In this document: one piece after another, positions 39,832 to 60,447 of the stretch | Position numbering within the stretch: position 1 is the stretch's first letter | Layout of the letters: each line of letters starts with the position of its first letter | The notes under the pieces: model-generated | The model's input: the letters and a program-made list of their open reading frames with translations, nothing else | The model's database searches: none | What the model was told of the DNA's origin: nothing | Made by a program: the position numbers and the translations under genes | Assembly: GCF_963676685.1 (NCBI RefSeq) | Contig: NC_092357.1 | Location: forward strand, 51,956,001-52,020,000 | From: Mytilus edulis | Lineage: Eukaryota | DNA length: 64,000 bases | Direction: 5' to 3'

Positions 39832-40064
39832 CTACACTGTTGTTTCAGAGTTATCCTCTACAATCATTAAAGGCTTCAGTTCTGTGCCGTTTACTTTCAT
39901 GTCATTGTAATAATCAGATGAGTTAGATTTCCGTGGCAATTGAGCATTTGTATGTACTGGACTGTCAAAATATTCCGGGTTATGAAATTGTAGCACAGGA
40001 TCAGGCTTCATGTACGTTGTATCATCCTCGTCATCAAACACAGGCTTATTCTCATTGATGTAAT
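39832..40064 (-). CDS. EGFR: EGF receptor terminal coding exon
   Basis: DYINENKPVF...FHNPEYF...DYYND...NSETTV*, with an NPxY motif, YxN motifs and a class I PDZ-type C-terminus; TAG at 39834-39832. Confidence 0.92.
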
Positions 40065-48846: not shown

Positions 48847-51800
48847 GTCTGAGACACAACAGTTGGACAGTTGAATGGATAAGATTGTAGATAGACTTAA
48901 CCAACCTTATCTCTGAGACACAACAGTTGGACAGTTGAATGGATAAGATTGTAGATAGACTTAACCAACCTTATCTGTCTGAGACACAACAGTTGGACAG
49001 TTGAATGGATAAGATTGTAGATAGACTTAACCAAACTTATCTCTGAGACACAACAGTTGGACAGTTGAATGGATAAGATTGTAGATAGACTTAACCAACC
49101 TTATCTCTGAGACACAACAGTTGGACAGTTGAATGGATAAGATTGTAGATAGACTTAACCAACCTTATCTCTGAGACACAACAGTTGGACAGTTGAATGG
49201 ATAAGATTGTAGATAGACTTAACCAACCTTATCTCTGAGACACAACAGTTGGACAGTTGAATGGATAAGATTGTAGATAGACTTAACCAACCTTATCTCT
49301 GAGACACAACAGTTGGACAGTTGAATGGATAAGATTGTAGATAGACTTAACCAACCTTATCTGTCTGAGACACAACAGTTGGACAGTTGAATGGATAAGA
49401 TTGTAGATAGACTTAACCAACCTTATCTCTGAGACACAACAGTTGGACAGTTGAATGGATAAGATTGTAGATAGACTTAACCAACCTTATCTCTGAGACA
49501 CAACAGTTGGACAGTTGAATGGATAAGATTGTAGATAGACTTAACCAACCTTATCTGTCTGAGACACAACAGTTGGACAGTTGAATGGATAAGATTGTAG
49601 ATAGACTTAACCAACCTTATCTCTGAGACACAACAGTTGGACAGTTGAATGGATAAGATTGTAGATAGACTTAACCAACCTTATCTCTGAGACACAACAG
49701 TTGGACAGTTGAATGGATAAGATTGTAGATAGACTTAACCAACCTTATCTCTGAGACACAACAGTTGGACAGTTGAATGGATAAGATTGTAGATAGACTT
49801 AACCAACCTTATCTCTGAGACACAACAGTTGGACAGTTGAATGGATAAGATTGTAGATAGACTTAACCAACCTTATCTGTCTGAGACACAACAGTTGGAC
49901 AGTTGAATGGATAAGATTGTAGATAGACTTAACCAACCTTATCTCTGAGACACAACAGTTGGACAGTTGAATGGATAAGATTGTAGATAGACTTAACCAA
50001 CCTTATCTCTGAGACACAACAGTTGGACAGTTGAATGGATAAGATTGTAGATAGACTTAACCAACCTTATCTCTGAGACACAACAGTTGGACAGTTGAAT
50101 GGATAAGATTGTAGATAGACTTAACCAACCTTATCTCTGAGACACAACAGTTGGACAGTTGAATGGATAAGATTGTAGATAGACTTAACCAATCTTATCT
50201 CTGAGACACAACAGTTGGACAGTTGAATGGATAAGATTGTAGATAGACTTAACCAATCTTATCTCTGAGACACAACAGTTGGACAGTTGAATGGATAAGA
50301 TTGTAGATAGACTTAACCAATCTTATCTCTGAGACACAACAGTTGGACAGTTGAATGGATAAGATTGTAGATAGACTTAACCAATCTTATCTCTGAGACA
50401 CAACAGTTGGACAGTTGAATGGATAAGATTGTAGATAGACTTAACCAACCTTATCTCTGAGACACAACAGTTGGACAGTTGAATGGATAAGATTGTAGAT
50501 AGACTTAACCAACCTTATCTCTGAGACACAACAGTTGGACAGTTGAATGGATAAGATTGTAGATAGACTTAACCAACCTTATCTCTGAGACACAACAGTT
50601 GGACAGTTGAATGGATAAGATTGTAGATAGACTTAACCAACCTTATCTCTGAGACACAACAGTTGGACAGTTGAATGGATAAGATTGTAGATAGACTTAA
50701 CCAACCTTATCTCTGAGACACAACAGTTGGACAGTTGAATGGATAAGATTGTAGATAGACTTAACCAACCTTATCTCTGAGACACAACAGTTGGACAGTT
50801 GAATGGATAAGATTGTAGATAGACTTAACCAACCTTATCTCTGAGACACAACAGTTGGACAGTTGAATGGATAAGATTGTAGATAGACTTAACCAACCTT
50901 ATCTCTGAGACACAACAGTTGGACAGTTGAATGGATAAGATTGTAGATAGACTTAACCAACCTTATCCTCTGAGACACAACAGTTGGACAGTTGAATGGA
51001 TAAGATTGTAGATAGACTTAACCAACCTTATCTCTGAGACACAACAGTTGGACAGTTGAATGGATAAGATTGTAGATAGACTTAACCAACCTTATCTCTG
51101 AGACACAACAGTTGGACAGTTGAATGGATAAGATTGTAGATAGACTTAACCAACCTTATCTCTGAGACACAACAGTTGGACAGTTGAATGGATAAGATTG
51201 TAGATAGACTTAACCAACCTTATCCTCTGAGACACAACAGTTGGACAGTTGAATGGATAAGATTGTAGATAGACTTAACCAACCTTATCTCTGAGACACA
51301 ACAGTTGGACAGTTGAATGGATAAGATTGTAAATAGACTTAACCAACCTTATCTCTGAGACACAACAGTTGGACAGTTGAATGGATAAGATTGTAGATAG
51401 ACTTAACCAACCTTATCTGCAGCACAGACAGACTAATGGATAAGATTGTAGATAGACTTAACCAATCTTATCTCTGAGACACAACAGTTGGACAGTTGAA
51501 TGGATAAGATTGTAGATAGACTTAACCAATCTTATCTCTGAGACACAACAGTTGGACAGTTGAATGGATAAGATTGTAGATAGACTTAACCAACCTTATC
51601 TCTGAGACACAACAGTTGGACAGTTGAATGGATAAGATTGTAGATAGACTTAACCAACCTTATCTCTGAGACACAACAGTTGGACAGTTGAATGGATAAG
51701 ATTGTAGATAGACTTAACCAACCTTATCTCTGAGACACAACAGTTGGACAGTTGAATGGATAAGATTGTAGATAGACTTAACCAACCTTATCTCTGAGAC

Positions 51801-54800
51801 ACAACAGTTGGACAGTTGAATGGATAAGATTGTAGATAGACTTAACCAACCTTATCCGCAGCACAGACAGACTAATGGATAAGATTGTAGATAGACTTAA
51901 CCAATCTTATCTCTGAGACACAACAGTTGGACAGTTGAATGGATAAGATTGTAGATAGACTTAACCAATCTTATCTCTGAGACACAACAGTTGGACAGTT
52001 GAATGGATAAGATTGTAGATAGACTTAACCAACCTTATCTCTGAGACACAACAGTTGGACAGTTGAATGGATAAGATTGTAGATAGACTTAACCAACCTT
52101 ATCTCTGAGACACAACAGTTGGACAGTTGAATGGATAAGATTGTAGATAGACTTAACCAACCTTATCTCTGAGACACAACAGTTGGACAGTTGAATGGAT
52201 AAGATTGTAGATAGACTTAACCAACCTTATCTCTGAGACACAACAGTTGGACAGTTGAATGGATAAGATTGTAGATAGACTTAACCAACCTTATCTGCAG
52301 CACAGACAGACTAATGGATAAGATTGTAGATAGACTTAACCAACCTTATCTCTGAGACACAACAGTTGGACAGTTGAATGGATAAGATTGTAGATAGACT
52401 TAACCAACCTTATCTCTGAGACACAACAGTTGGACAGTTGAATGGATAAGATTGTAGATAGACTTAACCAACCTTATCTCTGAGACACAACAGTTGGACA
52501 GTTGAATGGATAAGATTGTAGATAGACTTAACCAACCTTATCTCTGAGACACAACAGTTGGACAGTTGAATGGATAAGATTGTAGATAGACTTAACCAAC
52601 CTTATCTCTGAGACACAACAGTTGGACAGTTGAATGGATAAGATTGTAGATAGACTTAACCAAACTTATCTCTGAGACACAACAGTTGGACAGTTGAATG
52701 GATAAGATTGTAGATAGACTTAACCAAACTTATCTCTGAGACACAACAGTTGGACAGTTGAATGGATAAGATTGTAGATAGACTTAACCAACCTTATCTC
52801 TGAGACACAACAGTTGGACAGTTGAATGGATAAGATTGTAGATAGACTTAACCAACCTTATCTCTGAGACACAACAGTTGGACAGTTGAATGGATAAGAT
52901 TGTAGATAGACTTAACCAACCTTATCTCTGAGACACAACAGTTGGACAGTTGAATGGATAAGATTGTAGATAGACTTAACCAAACTTATCTCTGAGACAC
53001 AACAGTTGGACAGTTGAATGGATAAGATTGTAGATAGACTTAACCAATCTTATCTCTGAGACACAACAGTTGGACAGTTGAATGGATAAGATTGTAGATA
53101 GACTTAACCAACCTTATCTCTGAGACACAACAGTTGGACAGTTGAATGGATAAGATTGTAGATAGACTTAACCAACCTTATCTCTGAGACACAACAGTTG
53201 GACAGTTGAATGGATAAGATTGTAGATAGACTTAACCAATCTTATCTCTGAGACACAACAGTTGGACAGTTGAATGGATAAGATTGTAGATAGACTTAAC
53301 CAACCTTATCTCTGAGACACAACAGTTGGACAGTTGAATGGATAAGATTGTAGATAGACTTAACCAACCTTATCTCTGAGACACAACAGTTGGACAGTTG
53401 AATGGATAAGATTGTAGATAGACTTAACCAACCTTATCTCTGAGACACAACAGTTGGACAGTTGAATGGATAAGATTGTAGATAGACTTAACCAACCTTA
53501 TCTCTGAGACACAACAGTTGGACAGTTGAATGGATAAGATTGTAGATAGACTTAACCAAACTTATCTCTGAGACACAACAGTTGGACAGTTGAATGGATA
53601 AGATTGTAGATAGACTTAACCAACCTTATCTCTGAGACACAACAGTTGGACAGTTGAATGGATAAGATTGTAGATAGACTTAACCAACCTTATCTCTGAG
53701 ACACAACAGTTGGACAGTTGAATGGATAAGATTGTAGATAGACTTAACCAACCTTATCTCTGAGACACAACAGTTGGACAGTTGAATGGATAAGATTGTA
53801 GATAGACTTAACCAACCTTATCTCTGAGACACAACAGTTGGACAGTTGAATGGATAAGATTGTAGATAGACTTAACCAACCTTATCTCTGAGACACAACA
53901 GTTGGACAGTTGAATGGATAAGATTGTAGATAGACTTAACCAACCTTATCTCTGAGACACAACAGTTGGACAGTTGAATGGATAAGATTGTAGATAGACT
54001 TAACCAACCTTATCTCTGAGACACAACAGTTGGACAGTTGAATGGATAAGATTGTAGATAGACTTAACCAACCTTATCTCTGAGACACAACAGTTGGACA
54101 GTTGAATGGATAAGATTGTAGATAGACTTAACCAACCTTATCTCTGAGACACAACAGTTGGACAGTTGAATGGATAAGATTGTAGATAGACTTAACCAAC
54201 CTTATCTCTGAGACACAACAGTTGGACAGTTGAATGGATAAGATTGTAGATAGACTTAACCAACCTTATCTCTGAGACACAACAGTTGGACAGTTGAATG
54301 GATAAGATTGTAGATAGACTTAACCAAACTTATCTCTGAGACACAACAGTTGGACAGTTGAATGGATAAGATTGTAGATAGACTTAACCAACCTTATCTC
54401 TGAGACACAACAGTTGGACAGTTGAATGGATAAGATTGTAGATAGACTTAACCAACCTTATCTCTGAGACACAACAGTTGGACAGTTGAATGGATAAGAT
54501 TGTAGATAGACTTAACCAATCTTATCTCTGAGACACAACAGTTGGACAGTTGAATGGATAAGATTGTAGATAGACTTAACCAACCTTATCTCTGAGACAC
54601 AACAGTTGGACAGTTGAATGGATAAGATTGTAGATAGACTTAACCAACCTTATCTCTGAGACACAACAGTTGGACAGTTGAATGGATAAGATTGTAGATA
54701 GACTTAACCAACCTTATCTCTGAGACACAACAGTTGGACAGTTGAATGGATAAGATTGTAGATAGACTTAACCAACCTTATCTCTGAGACACAACAGTTG

Positions 54801-54911
54801 GACAGTTGAATGGATAAGATTGTAGATAGACTTAACCAACCTTATCTCTGAGACACAACAGTTGGACAGTTGAATGGATAAGATTGTAGATAGACTTAAC
54901 CAAACTTATCC
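48847..54911. repeat. 64-bp satellite array, ~6.1 kb, about 95 copies, in an EGFR kinase intron
   Basis: Unit ctctgagacacaacagttggacagttgaatggataagattgtagatagacttaaccaaccttat; copies are near-identical. Confidence 0.98.
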
Positions 54912-55255: not shown

Positions 55256-55331
55256 CATAACTCCAGACATCACTTTTATGTGTAAATACTCTGTGTTGTA
55301 TACATTCTAGTGCTAACCATTTGATTGGCAT
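55256..55331 (-). CDS. EGFR: EGF receptor exon, kinase subdomains VIII-IX
   Basis: [25 protein letters not shown](G); phase 0-1. Confidence 0.96.
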
Positions 55332-55946
55332 CTGAAAATAAAAAGTTGAAGTGTGATCTCTTGTTCTCTATGGATATAAGTATTCTGTGAACTGGAAGTT
55401 GGGGAGTAATTGGTTTGAAAATGTGTTACACAGTATAGCAGGCTCTCATGAAGCCCTAATAACCAATTTCAGGATGCTATCATTAAACAAAGTTTGCTTC
55501 ATAGGGTTTATTTCATACTTTACATTTGATCTTCCAAGGTGTTTTTAACACTAAATTTATTTGATTGTTACTGGATTTGAGAATTGCAACAATTATCTTT
55601 CAACTCTTGAGACAGGTAGTCTTCATCATGTTTATGGATTACATGTAAAAATAATTGCTTACTGAATACTGATTCCTAAATCTTAGGCTTTCTTTGTACT
55701 TTTTCTTGAAATATGGTAGATAATTTTCCACTTCCATTGTCATTTGACGGGTGAGAACAGACCGATTCCACAAATATATAAATTCAACTATAAAGGCTAT
55801 TCTTGCTAACAAACGGTCACTAAGATTAACCTTCATTGAGGTCATATGTCTTCTAATCTAATGCTAAAGACCTTATGGTATCATGGTACACTGTACAAAG
55901 TTATAAGTGACTGATTGCTTTATAATCAATAAATCATAAATTCTTA

Positions 55947-57416
55947 CCATTCAAAGGGCAATAACTTATGATTATTTTACCTTTCCTCCACCAGCTACAT
56001 TATAACCATTCAAAGGGCAATAACGAATGACTATTTTACCTTTCCTCCACCAGCTACATTATAACCATTCAAAGGGCAATAACGAATGACGATTTTACCT
56101 TTCCTCTACCAGCTACATTATAACCATTCAAAGGGCAATAACTAATGACTATTTTACCTTTCCTCCACCAGCTACATTATAACCATTCAAAGGGCAATAA
56201 CTAATGACTCTTTTACCTTTCCTCCACCAGCTACATTATAACCATTCAAAGGGCAATAACTAATGACTATTTTACCTTTCCTCCACCAGCTACATTATAA
56301 CCATTCAAAGGGCAATAACTAATGACTCTTTTACCTTTCCTCCACCAGCTACATTATACCAATTCAAAGGGCAATAACTTATGACTATTTTACCTTTCCT
56401 CCACCAGCTACATTATAACCATTCAAAGGGCAATAACTAATGACTATTTTACCTTTCCTCCACCAGCTACATTATAACCATTCAAAGGGCAATAACTAAT
56501 GACTCTTTTACCTTTCCTCCACCAGCTACATTATAACCATTCAAAGGGCAATAACTAATGACTCTTTTACCTTTCCTCCACCAGCTACATTATAACCATT
56601 CAAAGGGCAATAACTAATGACTCTTTTACCTTTCCTCCACCAGCTACATTATAACCATTCAAAGGGCAATAACGAATGACTATTTGACCTTTCCTCCACC
56701 AGCTACATTATAACCATTCAAAGGGCAATAACGAATGACGATTTTACCTTTCCTCTACCTGCTACATTATAACCATTCAAAGGGCAATAACTAATGACTA
56801 TTTGACCTTTCCTCCACCAGCTACATTATAACCATTCAAAGGGCAATAACTAATGACTCTTTTACCTTTCCTCCACCAGCTACATTATAACCATTCAAAG
56901 GGCAATAACTAATGACTATTTGACCTTTCCTCCACCAGCTACATTATAACCATTCAAAGGGCAATAACTAATGACTCTTTTACCTTTCCTCCACCAGCTA
57001 CATTATAACCATTCAAAGGGCAATAACTAATGACTCTTTTACCTTTCCTCCACCAGCTACATTATAACCATTCAAAGGGCAATAACGAATGACTATTTTA
57101 CCTTTCCTCCACCAGCTACATTATAACCATTCAAAGGGCAATAACTAATGACTCTTTTACCTTTCCTCCACCAGCTACATTATAACCATTCAAAGGGCAA
57201 TAACTAATGACTATTTGACCTTTCCTCCACCAGCTACATTATAACCATTCAAAGGGCAATAACTAATGACTATTTTACCTTTCCTCCACCAGCTACATTA
57301 TAACCTTTCAAAGGGCAATAACTAATGACTATTTTACCTTTCCTCCACCAGCTACATTATAACCATTCAAAGGGCAATAACTAATGACTATTTTACCTTT
57401 CCTCCACCAGCTACAT
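55947..57416 (-). repeat. 59-bp minisatellite made of the exon 3' end plus splice donor (25 donor positions)
   Basis: Minus-strand unit gtaaaatagtcattagttattgccctttgaatggttataATGTAGCTGGTGGAGGAAAG; donors from 57396 to 55980 span 24 x 59 bp. Confidence 0.97.
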
Positions 57417-57488
57417 ATTCATCTTCATTGTAGTCCAGCAGTTTAGCAAGACCAAAATCTGTTATCTTTATTTGACCTGGACTTTGAA
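57397..57488 (-). CDS. EGFR: EGF receptor exon, DFG and activation loop
   Basis: [31 protein letters not shown]; phase 1-0. Confidence 0.96.
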
Positions 57489-58073
57489 CTGAAAAATATT
57501 ATAAAATATCTGTATTATCAACCTAATTGCTAACAAAAGAATAATAATTATTGTTTTAATACCTGTAGGAACTGGTTTGTTTTAAATATGTACTCCTTGA
57601 GATGCGTTTTTGATGCGTTTTGTTATTTGATTTTGCCATGTGATTGTGGACTTTCCGAATTGATTTTCCTCTGAGTTCAGTATTTTTGTGATTTTACTTT
57701 TTTCTCCAACCATCTATGTTCTTTTTTACTCAGAGTTGATGGTGTTACATCTTTTAAAACCTGTCTATCGCATTATTTGCCCTAAACATATGTTATTTCC
57801 TCTAAATTTATTCAACAGTGTGATTGTTTTATGTTCATGTTTTATTTCTTTGATGTGAAAAACTTGTAAGTTTGATTTGAGAAAGATGTCACTTTTTTTT
57901 TTACATGTATTTATTTCTTATAAGCAAACTACTTCTTAGTGTTCAATAAAAATATTATGAATCTTTGTAATATATGAGCTGCATTGGATAGAAATTAACC
58001 TTCTGCAAGTGCACATACACATGTACATTGCTAATACTTTAATTGATTTTGGAACATTCAAATAACAAATTAA

Positions 58074-58346
58074 GGTGGTACCTAACACTACAGAGAGATA
58101 ACTCTGTAAAGTCAGCTAAACGTTTTAATTTTGTTGCGTTGTTAAGGGAATATTAAGCTTCTCAATGATCAATATTGGTGTTTGTCAAACTGCTATATAA
58201 CCTGTGTAATTTTTCTGATAAAATGGTTGGTTCAAATTTTTTGAAATTTTTACATTTTTGTCAAAGGGTCAAAGTAAATACTTTGCCAAAATTTTATGAA
58301 AATTAAACGAGCCAAATTAATTTTAGTGACGGTGTTGGGTACCACC
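58074..58346. mobile_element. Kolobok-type MITE
   Basis: TTAA TSDs at 58070-58073 and 58347-58350; TIR GGTGGTACC(T/C)AACAC. Confidence 0.85.
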
Positions 58347-58483
58347 TTAAAGTTGAATGTTTGTCTGTTTTGTGGGTTCTTGTATTTCCTCAATTATCAA
58401 ACAGTTACACACTTTGAATAAAGATTTTTTAAACCAGTAATGTTAACAGATGTAAGGATATTCATTTCATAAGGTTGATTTCT

Positions 58484-58783
58484 ATCCATAACAGCTCATA
58501 CACTGACTATATCATCCATAACAGCTCATACACGGACTATATCATCCATAACAGCTCATACACTGACTATATCATCCATAACAGCTCATACACTGACTAT
58601 ATCATCCATAACAGCTCATAAACTGACTATATCATCCATAACAGCTCATACACTGACTATATCATCCATAACAGCTCATACACTGACTATATCACCCATA
58701 ACAGCTCATACACTGACTACATCATCCATAACAGCTTATACACTGACTATATCATCCATAACAGCTCATACACTGACTATATC
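58484..58783. repeat. 30-bp minisatellite, ~10 copies
   Basis: Unit atccataacagctcatacactgactatatc. Confidence 0.95.
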
Positions 58784-58867
58784 TTTTTCATTTCCCTATA
58801 CTCCTTTAATTATATCAAGTGCAATAAAAATAAGATAGGATTAGTCTATGTTCTGTATAGCCTTAAT

Positions 58868-59731
58868 CTGAAGTCTGTGATTGAGACATATCCTTACCTA
58901 CTACATTTCTGAAGTCTGTGATTGAGACATATCCTTACCTAGTACATTTCTGAAGTCTGTGATTTAGACATATCCTTACCTAGTACATTTCTGATGTCTT
59001 TGATTGAGACATATCCTTACCTAGTACATTTCTGAAGTCTGTGATTGAGACATATCCTTACCTAGTACATTTCTGATGTCTGTGATTGAGACATATCCTT
59101 ACCTAGTACATTTCTGAAGTCTGTGATTGAGACATATCCTTACCTAGTACATTTCTGAAGTCTGTGATTGAGACATATCCTTACCTAGTACATTTCTGAA
59201 GTCTGTGATTGAGACATATCCTTACCTAGTACATTTCTGATGTCTTTGATTGAGACATATCCTTACCTAGTACATTTCTGAAGTCTGTGATTGAGACATA
59301 TCTTTACCTAATACATTTCTGAAGTCTGTGATTGAGACATATCCTTACCTAATACATTTCTGAAGTCTGTGATTGAGACATATCCTTACCTAGTACATTT
59401 CTGAAGTCTGTGATTGAGACATATCCTTACCTAGTACATTTCTGATGTCTGTGATTGAGACATATCCTTACCTAGTACATTTCTGAAGTCTGTGATTGAG
59501 ACATATCCTTACCTAGTACATTTCTGAAGTCTGTGATTGAGACATATCCTTACCTAGTACATTTCTGATGTCTGTGATTGAGACATATCCTTACCTAGTA
59601 CATTTCTGATGTCTGTGATTGAGACATATCCTTACCTAGTACATTTCTGATGTCTGTGATTGAGACATATCCTTACCTAGTACATTTCTGATGTCTGTGA
59701 TTGAGACATATCCTTACCTAGTACATTTCTG
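58868..59731 (-). repeat. 41-bp minisatellite made of the exon 3' end plus splice donor (21 donor positions)
   Basis: Minus-strand unit gtaaggatatgtctcaatcacagac(a/t)tcAGAAATGTACTAG; donors from 59717 to 58897 span 20 x 41 bp. Confidence 0.97.
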
Positions 59732-59781
59732 GCTGCTAGATCTCTGTGTACAATTCCACGTTCTTCTAAATATGCCATACC
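59718..59781 (-). CDS. EGFR: EGF receptor exon, catalytic loop
   Basis: [21 protein letters not shown]; donor G|gtaagg; phase 0-1. Confidence 0.96.
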
Positions 59782-60162: not shown

Positions 60163-60447
60163 CCTTGCTATTTGTGTGGCCCAGTTCAACAGCACTTTAG
60201 AACCCACATTCTCTTTGTGTTTCCTAACATAGTCCAGTAAACAGCCCAGTGGCATTAACTGTGTAATTAACATCATTTGTGCAGTCATACAGACAGCTAG
60301 AATCCTGATACAACAGACATTGTCCACACTGGACATCACTCGTGCCTCTTCTAGTAATTCTTTATTCAGATTGGGTGATGTACCTTCCTGTAGTACTTTA
60401 ATGGCTACTGGTATCTTGACATTTTCATTGTCTGGTATCCAGAATCC
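60163..60447 (-). CDS. EGFR: EGF receptor exon, kinase N-lobe and hinge
   Basis: [19 protein letters not shown]...EEARVM...[15 protein letters not shown]...[10 protein letters not shown], diagnostic of the ErbB family. Confidence 0.97.

Follow-up and report, generated by a model that had tools for sequence, protein, structure and literature searches.

The exon that encodes the DFG...GGK part of the kinase in the EGF-receptor (EGFR) gene of Mytilus edulis ends inside a 59-bp minisatellite, in which the exon end and its splice donor are repeated 24 more times into the intron. We put at about 0.8 the probability that this array is a locally born minisatellite whose first unit lies over the exon-intron boundary, with splicing taking the first donor and the 24 copies behind it likely being tolerated passengers. 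It is an ordinary case of a known type of boundary minisatellite, that of human F7 and of the lancelet "mirages."

The 59-bp array and its host gene

The window (the whole stretch of 64,000 nucleotides that was analyzed) carries the 3' part of EGFR on its minus strand, at 39835 to 63752. A tblastn search with P0123 on the window and L009 to L016 placed the coding exons across ~102 kb, in the window and in the neighbor to its right, with ~78 kb of the gene lying beyond the window's right end. The 95 residues of the exon at 60447 to 60163 matched, with 100% identity, the protein Mytilus EGFR-like, whose cluster has members from five Mytilus species. Three kinase exons, all on the minus strand, frame the region of interest: the catalytic-loop (HRDLA) exon at 59718 to 59781, whose end was placed by six spliced reads; the DFG...GGK exon of 92 nt at 57397 to 57488, both borders of which are RNA loose ends and the last 20 nt of which form the exonic part of the 59-bp unit; and the next exon, of 76 nt, at 55256 to 55331, with its start taken from spliced reads and its end from sequence. 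The kinase was uninterrupted at both junctions in the eleven proteins from Mytilus and other mollusks that were compared. A synonymous variant at 57439 in the DFG exon was present in 5 of 11 reads of RNA run X24 and also in X7, X8, X10, X15, and X17. The intron upstream of this exon contains two very high-copy dispersed repeats, at 57600 to 57705 and 58070 to 58350, which were abundant in DNA and RNA runs and the ends of which were joined to each other in some contigs.

TRF delimited the minisatellite at 55946 to 57416 (minus strand, 24.9 copies, 96% matches). The first monomer spans the real exon-intron boundary: the array edge at 57416 is inside the exon at 57488 to 57397, and the authentic donor, AAG/GTAAAA at 57391 to 57399 (minus strand, first intron base 57396), is used in RNA. 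Altogether, 25 donors were spaced at exactly 59 nt from 57396 to 55980, the 24 pseudo-donors running from 57337 to 55980, in agreement with a preliminary description of this DNA that had reported 24 extra copies of 20 exonic nt plus a donor at 59-bp spacing. The majority of gtaaaa and minority of gtcaaa described there were likewise borne out, with 21 GTAAAA words (the true one included) and 4 GTCAAA words, or 20 and 4 among the 24 copies; the splice signal AAG/GTAAAA is thus reiterated intact in 20 of the 24. The 20-nt exon end preceded every donor and was altered in 2 of 24 copies. The 24 full units comprised 10 unit types in a nontrivial order, with a mean identity of 98% to the consensus. 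Unit 1 reads V-K-stop and is retained with any downstream donor; the expected GGK-V-K-stop product was obtained by translating read-through and each of four donors (2, 3, 4, and 25). The distance from the array end to the start of the next exon (55331) was 615 nt, for which ~600 nt had been given, and this non-array 3' part of the intron (55332 to 55945, minus strand) ends in the acceptor ttttcag; its start was joined to the unit in DNA run X8.

A DNA search with the exon and first unit gave 25 matches, all of them here and none elsewhere in the genome, although the absence of a match is not proof of rarity. Within the limits of this search, a dispersed satellite or transposon family was rejected because matches to the unit were confined to the EGFR locus (25/25), and this same confinement supports a local birth of the array. 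It would have arisen by duplication of a 59-nt stretch across the boundary, after which the copy number may have gone up and down by slippage or unequal exchange. The same run of EGFR introns also holds arrays that, by TRF, touch no splice site: a 30-bp minisatellite of 10 copies at 58484 to 58783 and, in the following intron, a 64-bp minisatellite of 95 copies at 48848 to 54910 (6 kb, 97% matches) that fills most of that intron.

Two other architectures were considered for the units. Recursive (ratchet) splice sites have a polypyrimidine tract and YAG immediately before the regenerated GT; each GT of the 59-bp array is instead preceded by purine-rich ...GGTGGAGGAAAG, and this candidate was rejected. 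The units of tandem alternative exon arrays of the Dscam type are full exons, each having an acceptor of its own and an open reading frame. Arrays of this type were also rejected, since on inspection the 20 exonic nt are not preceded by a pyrimidine tract, a stop falls at codon 3 of unit 1, and no reads of this kind were seen.

The array is real and common to independent animals, and the exact count of 25 rests on the assembly. The single-copy contig stopped at 57387 in DNA runs X5, X7, X8, and X10, which carry four organism labels; this position lies within the array, 30 nt from its edge, which is where a k=31 branch into a repeat would be expected, and unit depth was far above that of the flank in all four runs. 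For X5, X7, and X10 the evidence consists of depth and piece tables, as read mapping was swamped by the two dispersed repeats. In X8 the window's 3' flank was joined to the unit, and depth was 416 to 487 for the unit and 35.5 to 36.6 for the flank. This ratio of ~12, compared to 25 donors in the window, suggests that array length may be variable, though it is a rough measure, as contig depth does not equal copy number. Tandem arrays are easily misassembled; nevertheless, an assembly artifact is extremely improbable, given the same-edge branch and multicopy depth in four independent DNA runs, the RNA reads that run from unit into unit across the array, and ten unit types in a nontrivial order. 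The raw-read support on which the preliminary description had made the array depend is thus provided by four DNA runs and by X24 RNA reads. The analysis covered seven of the 24 runs: these four DNA runs and the RNA runs X15, X17, and X24.

Donor choice and the fate of the copies

X24 is raw stranded RNA from one run, of which ~6% was read, with loose ends listed from 3 reads up. Eighteen reads fell on 57301 to 57540, and seven of these left at 57397 into the next exon with an agreement of 1; at this low depth, 7 of 7 listed junction reads used the first donor of the array. A count of junction reads from each donor to acceptor 55331, as had been proposed, therefore yielded seven from the true donor and none from the copies. 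Six further sense reads lay inside the array and ran unit into unit, so the sampled animal material carries the array; these six account for the depth of 5 to 6 over 57301 to 57396, and therefore no read-through or copy-spliced read was evident. RNA contigs of X15 and X17 showed both true donors spliced, with the unit as a separate 89-nt contig. In all, use of a copy donor was seen in none of the 18 X24 reads and in neither RNA contig set (X15 or X17), and the authentic donor was the sole one seen used. At the acceptor of the DFG exon, six reads continued with the true HRDLA exon (agreement 1). We rejected a stable or circular RNA as the source of the array-derived RNA (the six sense reads and the 89-nt unit contigs) because the collapse of many intronic copies suffices and single-copy intron depth in X24 was 0 to 2.

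It had been argued that donor selection must be strict here. Choice of the first donor was upheld in 7/7 reads and 2/2 RNA contig sets; its strictness was not, in that by the binomial bound 0/7 copy-spliced reads still allows for copy use of up to ~35%, and stop-containing copy-spliced RNA could escape notice through nonsense-mediated decay. Of the two modes proposed, exon definition and first-come selection cannot be separated with the data at the EGFR locus. Splicing would likely be committed to the first donor, which marks the exon end and is the earliest to be transcribed, before the copies can compete. Nonsense-mediated decay would eliminate any rare RNA spliced at a copy, and the array presumably has no function of its own. 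In mutagenesis of human F7, the most upstream of identical donors was chosen (PMC1557585).

The preceding EGFR intron begins in the same manner. A second donor-spanning minisatellite lies at 58867 to 59731 on the minus strand (TRF and RNA); its 41-bp unit comprises 14 exonic nt plus GTAAGG, giving 21 donors, 20 of them extra. Five translated copies all led to a stop (...SEMY-stop), and in X24 the true donor was used in 6/6 reads with no copy use seen. The chance of at least two array-bearing donors among the 25 EGFR donors is ~0.03 to 0.17 at rates of 1.1 to 3%. The persistence of the 59-bp array across four organism labels and the presence of two neighboring array donors are compatible with some bias or role.

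One such role would be that of a tuning device, in which some splicing at a copy adds V-K-stop and leads to decay or to a kinase-dead receptor, so that array length sets EGFR dose. The tested copies do lead to a stop, GTAAAA is kept in 20/24, and the array is common to all four organism labels. Human 6-16 and CBS, moreover, also use the next two copies (PMC1557585), unlike Mytilus EGFR, where no copy use was seen at low depth; by this analogy, some leakage to the copies is possible. We nonetheless consider a tuning device unlikely: the 0/18 reads and 0/2 contig sets speak against it, as do the weakened GTCAAA donors among the unit variants, which drift would give, and the similar arrays in the unrelated genes found in the survey below. 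Somewhat less probable still is active silencing of the copies, as opposed to mere second place, by hairpins or by UAG-rich elements of the hnRNP A1 type between donors. Each unit does contain 1 to 4 UAG triplets, and predicted openness was 0.85 for the true donor and 0.50 on average for the copies (37°C, 80+80-nt windows). This folding contrast, however, reversed with other window sizes, and windows of the same size showed no such contrast for the 41-bp array. The idea that RNA folding masks the copies was rejected, the result flipping with window size and temperature. Silencing would also require a silencer of its own for each unrelated unit in many genes, and for F7 both silencers and structure were dismissed after testing (PMC1557585). 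First-donor splicing with passive copies accordingly remains our preferred reading.

Known boundary minisatellites

The preliminary description implied that the design is rare. This received no support: it has been published for human F7, CBS, 6-16, lamin B2, and PDGF and for lancelet genes, and in Mytilus it recurs in the neighboring intron and widely in the genome. The closest parallel is the 37-bp VNTR across the exon 7 donor in intron 7 of human F7 (Borensztajn et al. 2006; PMC1557585), in which, as in Mytilus EGFR, the first monomer lies over the boundary, identical pseudo-donors follow, and the most upstream donor alone is used (here, alone seen used, at low depth). The differences are a unit of 59 bp here versus 37 bp, 24 extra copies versus 4 to 8, and 20 exonic nt versus 4; in addition, an in-frame stop precedes every copy in Mytilus, whereas F7 has two copies that would preserve the frame (PMC1557585). 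The host here is a mollusk. The boundary minisatellites of human 6-16 (25 pseudo-sites), CBS intron 13, lamin B2, and PDGF, as described there, share the architecture and a similar copy number (PMC1557585). The mirages of the lancelet Adh3 and globin genes (Ebner et al. 2010; PMC3087553) are likewise minisatellites over exon-intron boundaries in a marine invertebrate; they are length-unstable, leave splicing unaffected, and occur at 5' and 3' boundaries alike, and in the available text they are described gene by gene, without a genome-wide rate or a donor/acceptor comparison (PMC3087553). A literature search whose coverage excluded most subscription journals found no genome-wide or molluscan study of such arrays.

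Arrays at splice sites across the genome

We surveyed the genome for 7-letter words repeated three times at 32- to 62-nt spacing. Raw genome match counts against reversed-word controls were set aside both for donor words (AGGTAAG, 3,249 versus 2,021; AGGTATG, 2,414 versus 2,128) and for acceptor words (TTTTCAG, 2,909 versus 4,258; TTTGCAG, 559 versus 367), and loci were counted instead because a few large arrays and families dominate the raw counts. Among the matches listed, 13 AGGTAAG loci (first 30.8 Mb of C1) and 16 AGGTATG loci (first 84.6 Mb) were assessed, 29 in all; as controls we used single, non-array occurrences of the words in 40 stretches of 10 kb, spaced over the first 31 Mb of C1. 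Exon-like ends were called with a score (threshold, 4) trained on kinase open reading frames (ORFs) and EGFR acceptors. The kinase ORFs for the coding model came from a Pfam kinase search of the genome and were mostly long single-exon matches; tandem, near-identical single-exon kinase ORFs at ~1.8-kb spacing were noted at G000:C1:44213031-44230434 and C3:19693085-19698987. The score passed 22/24 EGFR donors, a test that is not fully independent since the acceptor matrix is from EGFR, and 6/102 reversed-word controls.

Exon-like ends were found at 14 of the 29 donor-word arrays (among the matches listed) and at 11 of 61 single words (Fisher P = 0.005). Pfam confirmed the adjoining exon for 9/29 arrays, from 22 peptides submitted, versus 1/61 single words, from the best 16 peptides of at least 20 residues (P = 1e-4). 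Similar arrays sit in unrelated genes such as those for dynein, IDH, Wnt, FoxP, SNF2, and a calcium channel. Two donor arrays, L078:3690-3821 (41 bp, 6 copies) and L150:2440-2505 (54 bp, 27 copies), lie ~10 kb apart on the same strand of C1 near 0.22 to 0.23 Mb, likely in one voltage-gated calcium channel gene (the Pfam match is for L078 only); because these also pair in a calcium-channel-like stretch, the EGFR pair is not unique. At L081:3425-3573, a T-rich, acceptor-like ...TTATTACAG in a 33-bp unit is joined straight to GTAAGT and resembles a repeated recursive splice site; an upstream coding exon was looked for there, and none was found.

For acceptor words, 6 of 20 TTTTCAG loci were exon-like versus 10 of 126 single words, a count that omits ~8 loci of dispersed families and another 2 located past 80.6 Mb; for TTTGCAG, with two dispersed families left out, the figures were 2/16 loci in 212 Mb versus 5/58. 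The acceptor score is weak, with 4/101 and 5/46 controls above threshold, and one further TTTGCAG locus, L173, looks like a real exon but scored 1.6. Acceptor-spanning arrays were observed at L098 (array end, 3685), L173, L104, L095, and L175, with up to 28 and 23 copies. In these the exon adjoins the last copy; an RNase P p30 exon and an Ig domain were identified by Pfam and the others by inspection. Arrays thus occur at acceptors as well, and some of them exceed 20 copies.

Per-site array rates were ~1.1% for each donor word, 0.3% for TTTTCAG, 0.1 to 0.5% for TTTGCAG, and 0.2% for decoy donor words, with denominators that rest on 3 to 10 sites each and control stretches that represent a smaller part of the genome than do the lists for AGGTATG and the acceptor words. 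Because of these small denominators, the narrower controls, and the acceptor false positives, the donor excess is read only as roughly 3- to 6-fold. The survey suggests an array frequency of ~1% for such donors, which is severalfold higher than that for acceptors. Scaling the loci by genome match counts gives about 400 to 550 exon-end arrays for the two donor words at 32- to 62-nt spacing, and the number across all donors would be higher still. Arrays at real donors seem over-represented, for which plain uniform drift is no explanation. We propose tentatively, at slightly less than even odds, that mussel minisatellites are born or kept at real donors several-fold more often than at acceptors or decoy donor words. 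Such an excess would need either preferential birth close to exon ends or a symmetric near-exon excess with purging of acceptor arrays; these data cannot tell the two apart.

The rough genome survey and the donor bias are what is new here, the latter not having been found described in our literature search. The EGFR locus itself is ordinary and valuable as the entry to a population of arrays; the genome-wide donor bias is a lead worth testing. If it is true, hundreds to thousands of introns (~1 to 2% of donors) begin with arrays of decoy donors, a polarity that would amount to a natural experiment on the scale of the genome: either donor copies do no harm downstream whereas acceptor copies upstream are purged, as first-come cotranscriptional choice predicts, or donors seed tandem duplication. 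In practice, short-read assembly and gene annotation in Mytilus would also be prone to errors at such arrays. If ~1% of mussel donors carry arrays, they would amount to hundreds of natural, length-variable tests of competition between identical 5' splice sites, with a wide range of donor strengths, unit lengths, and reading frames, and existing RNA data could then be used to test first-come choice against exon definition and the seeding of new introns by repeats.
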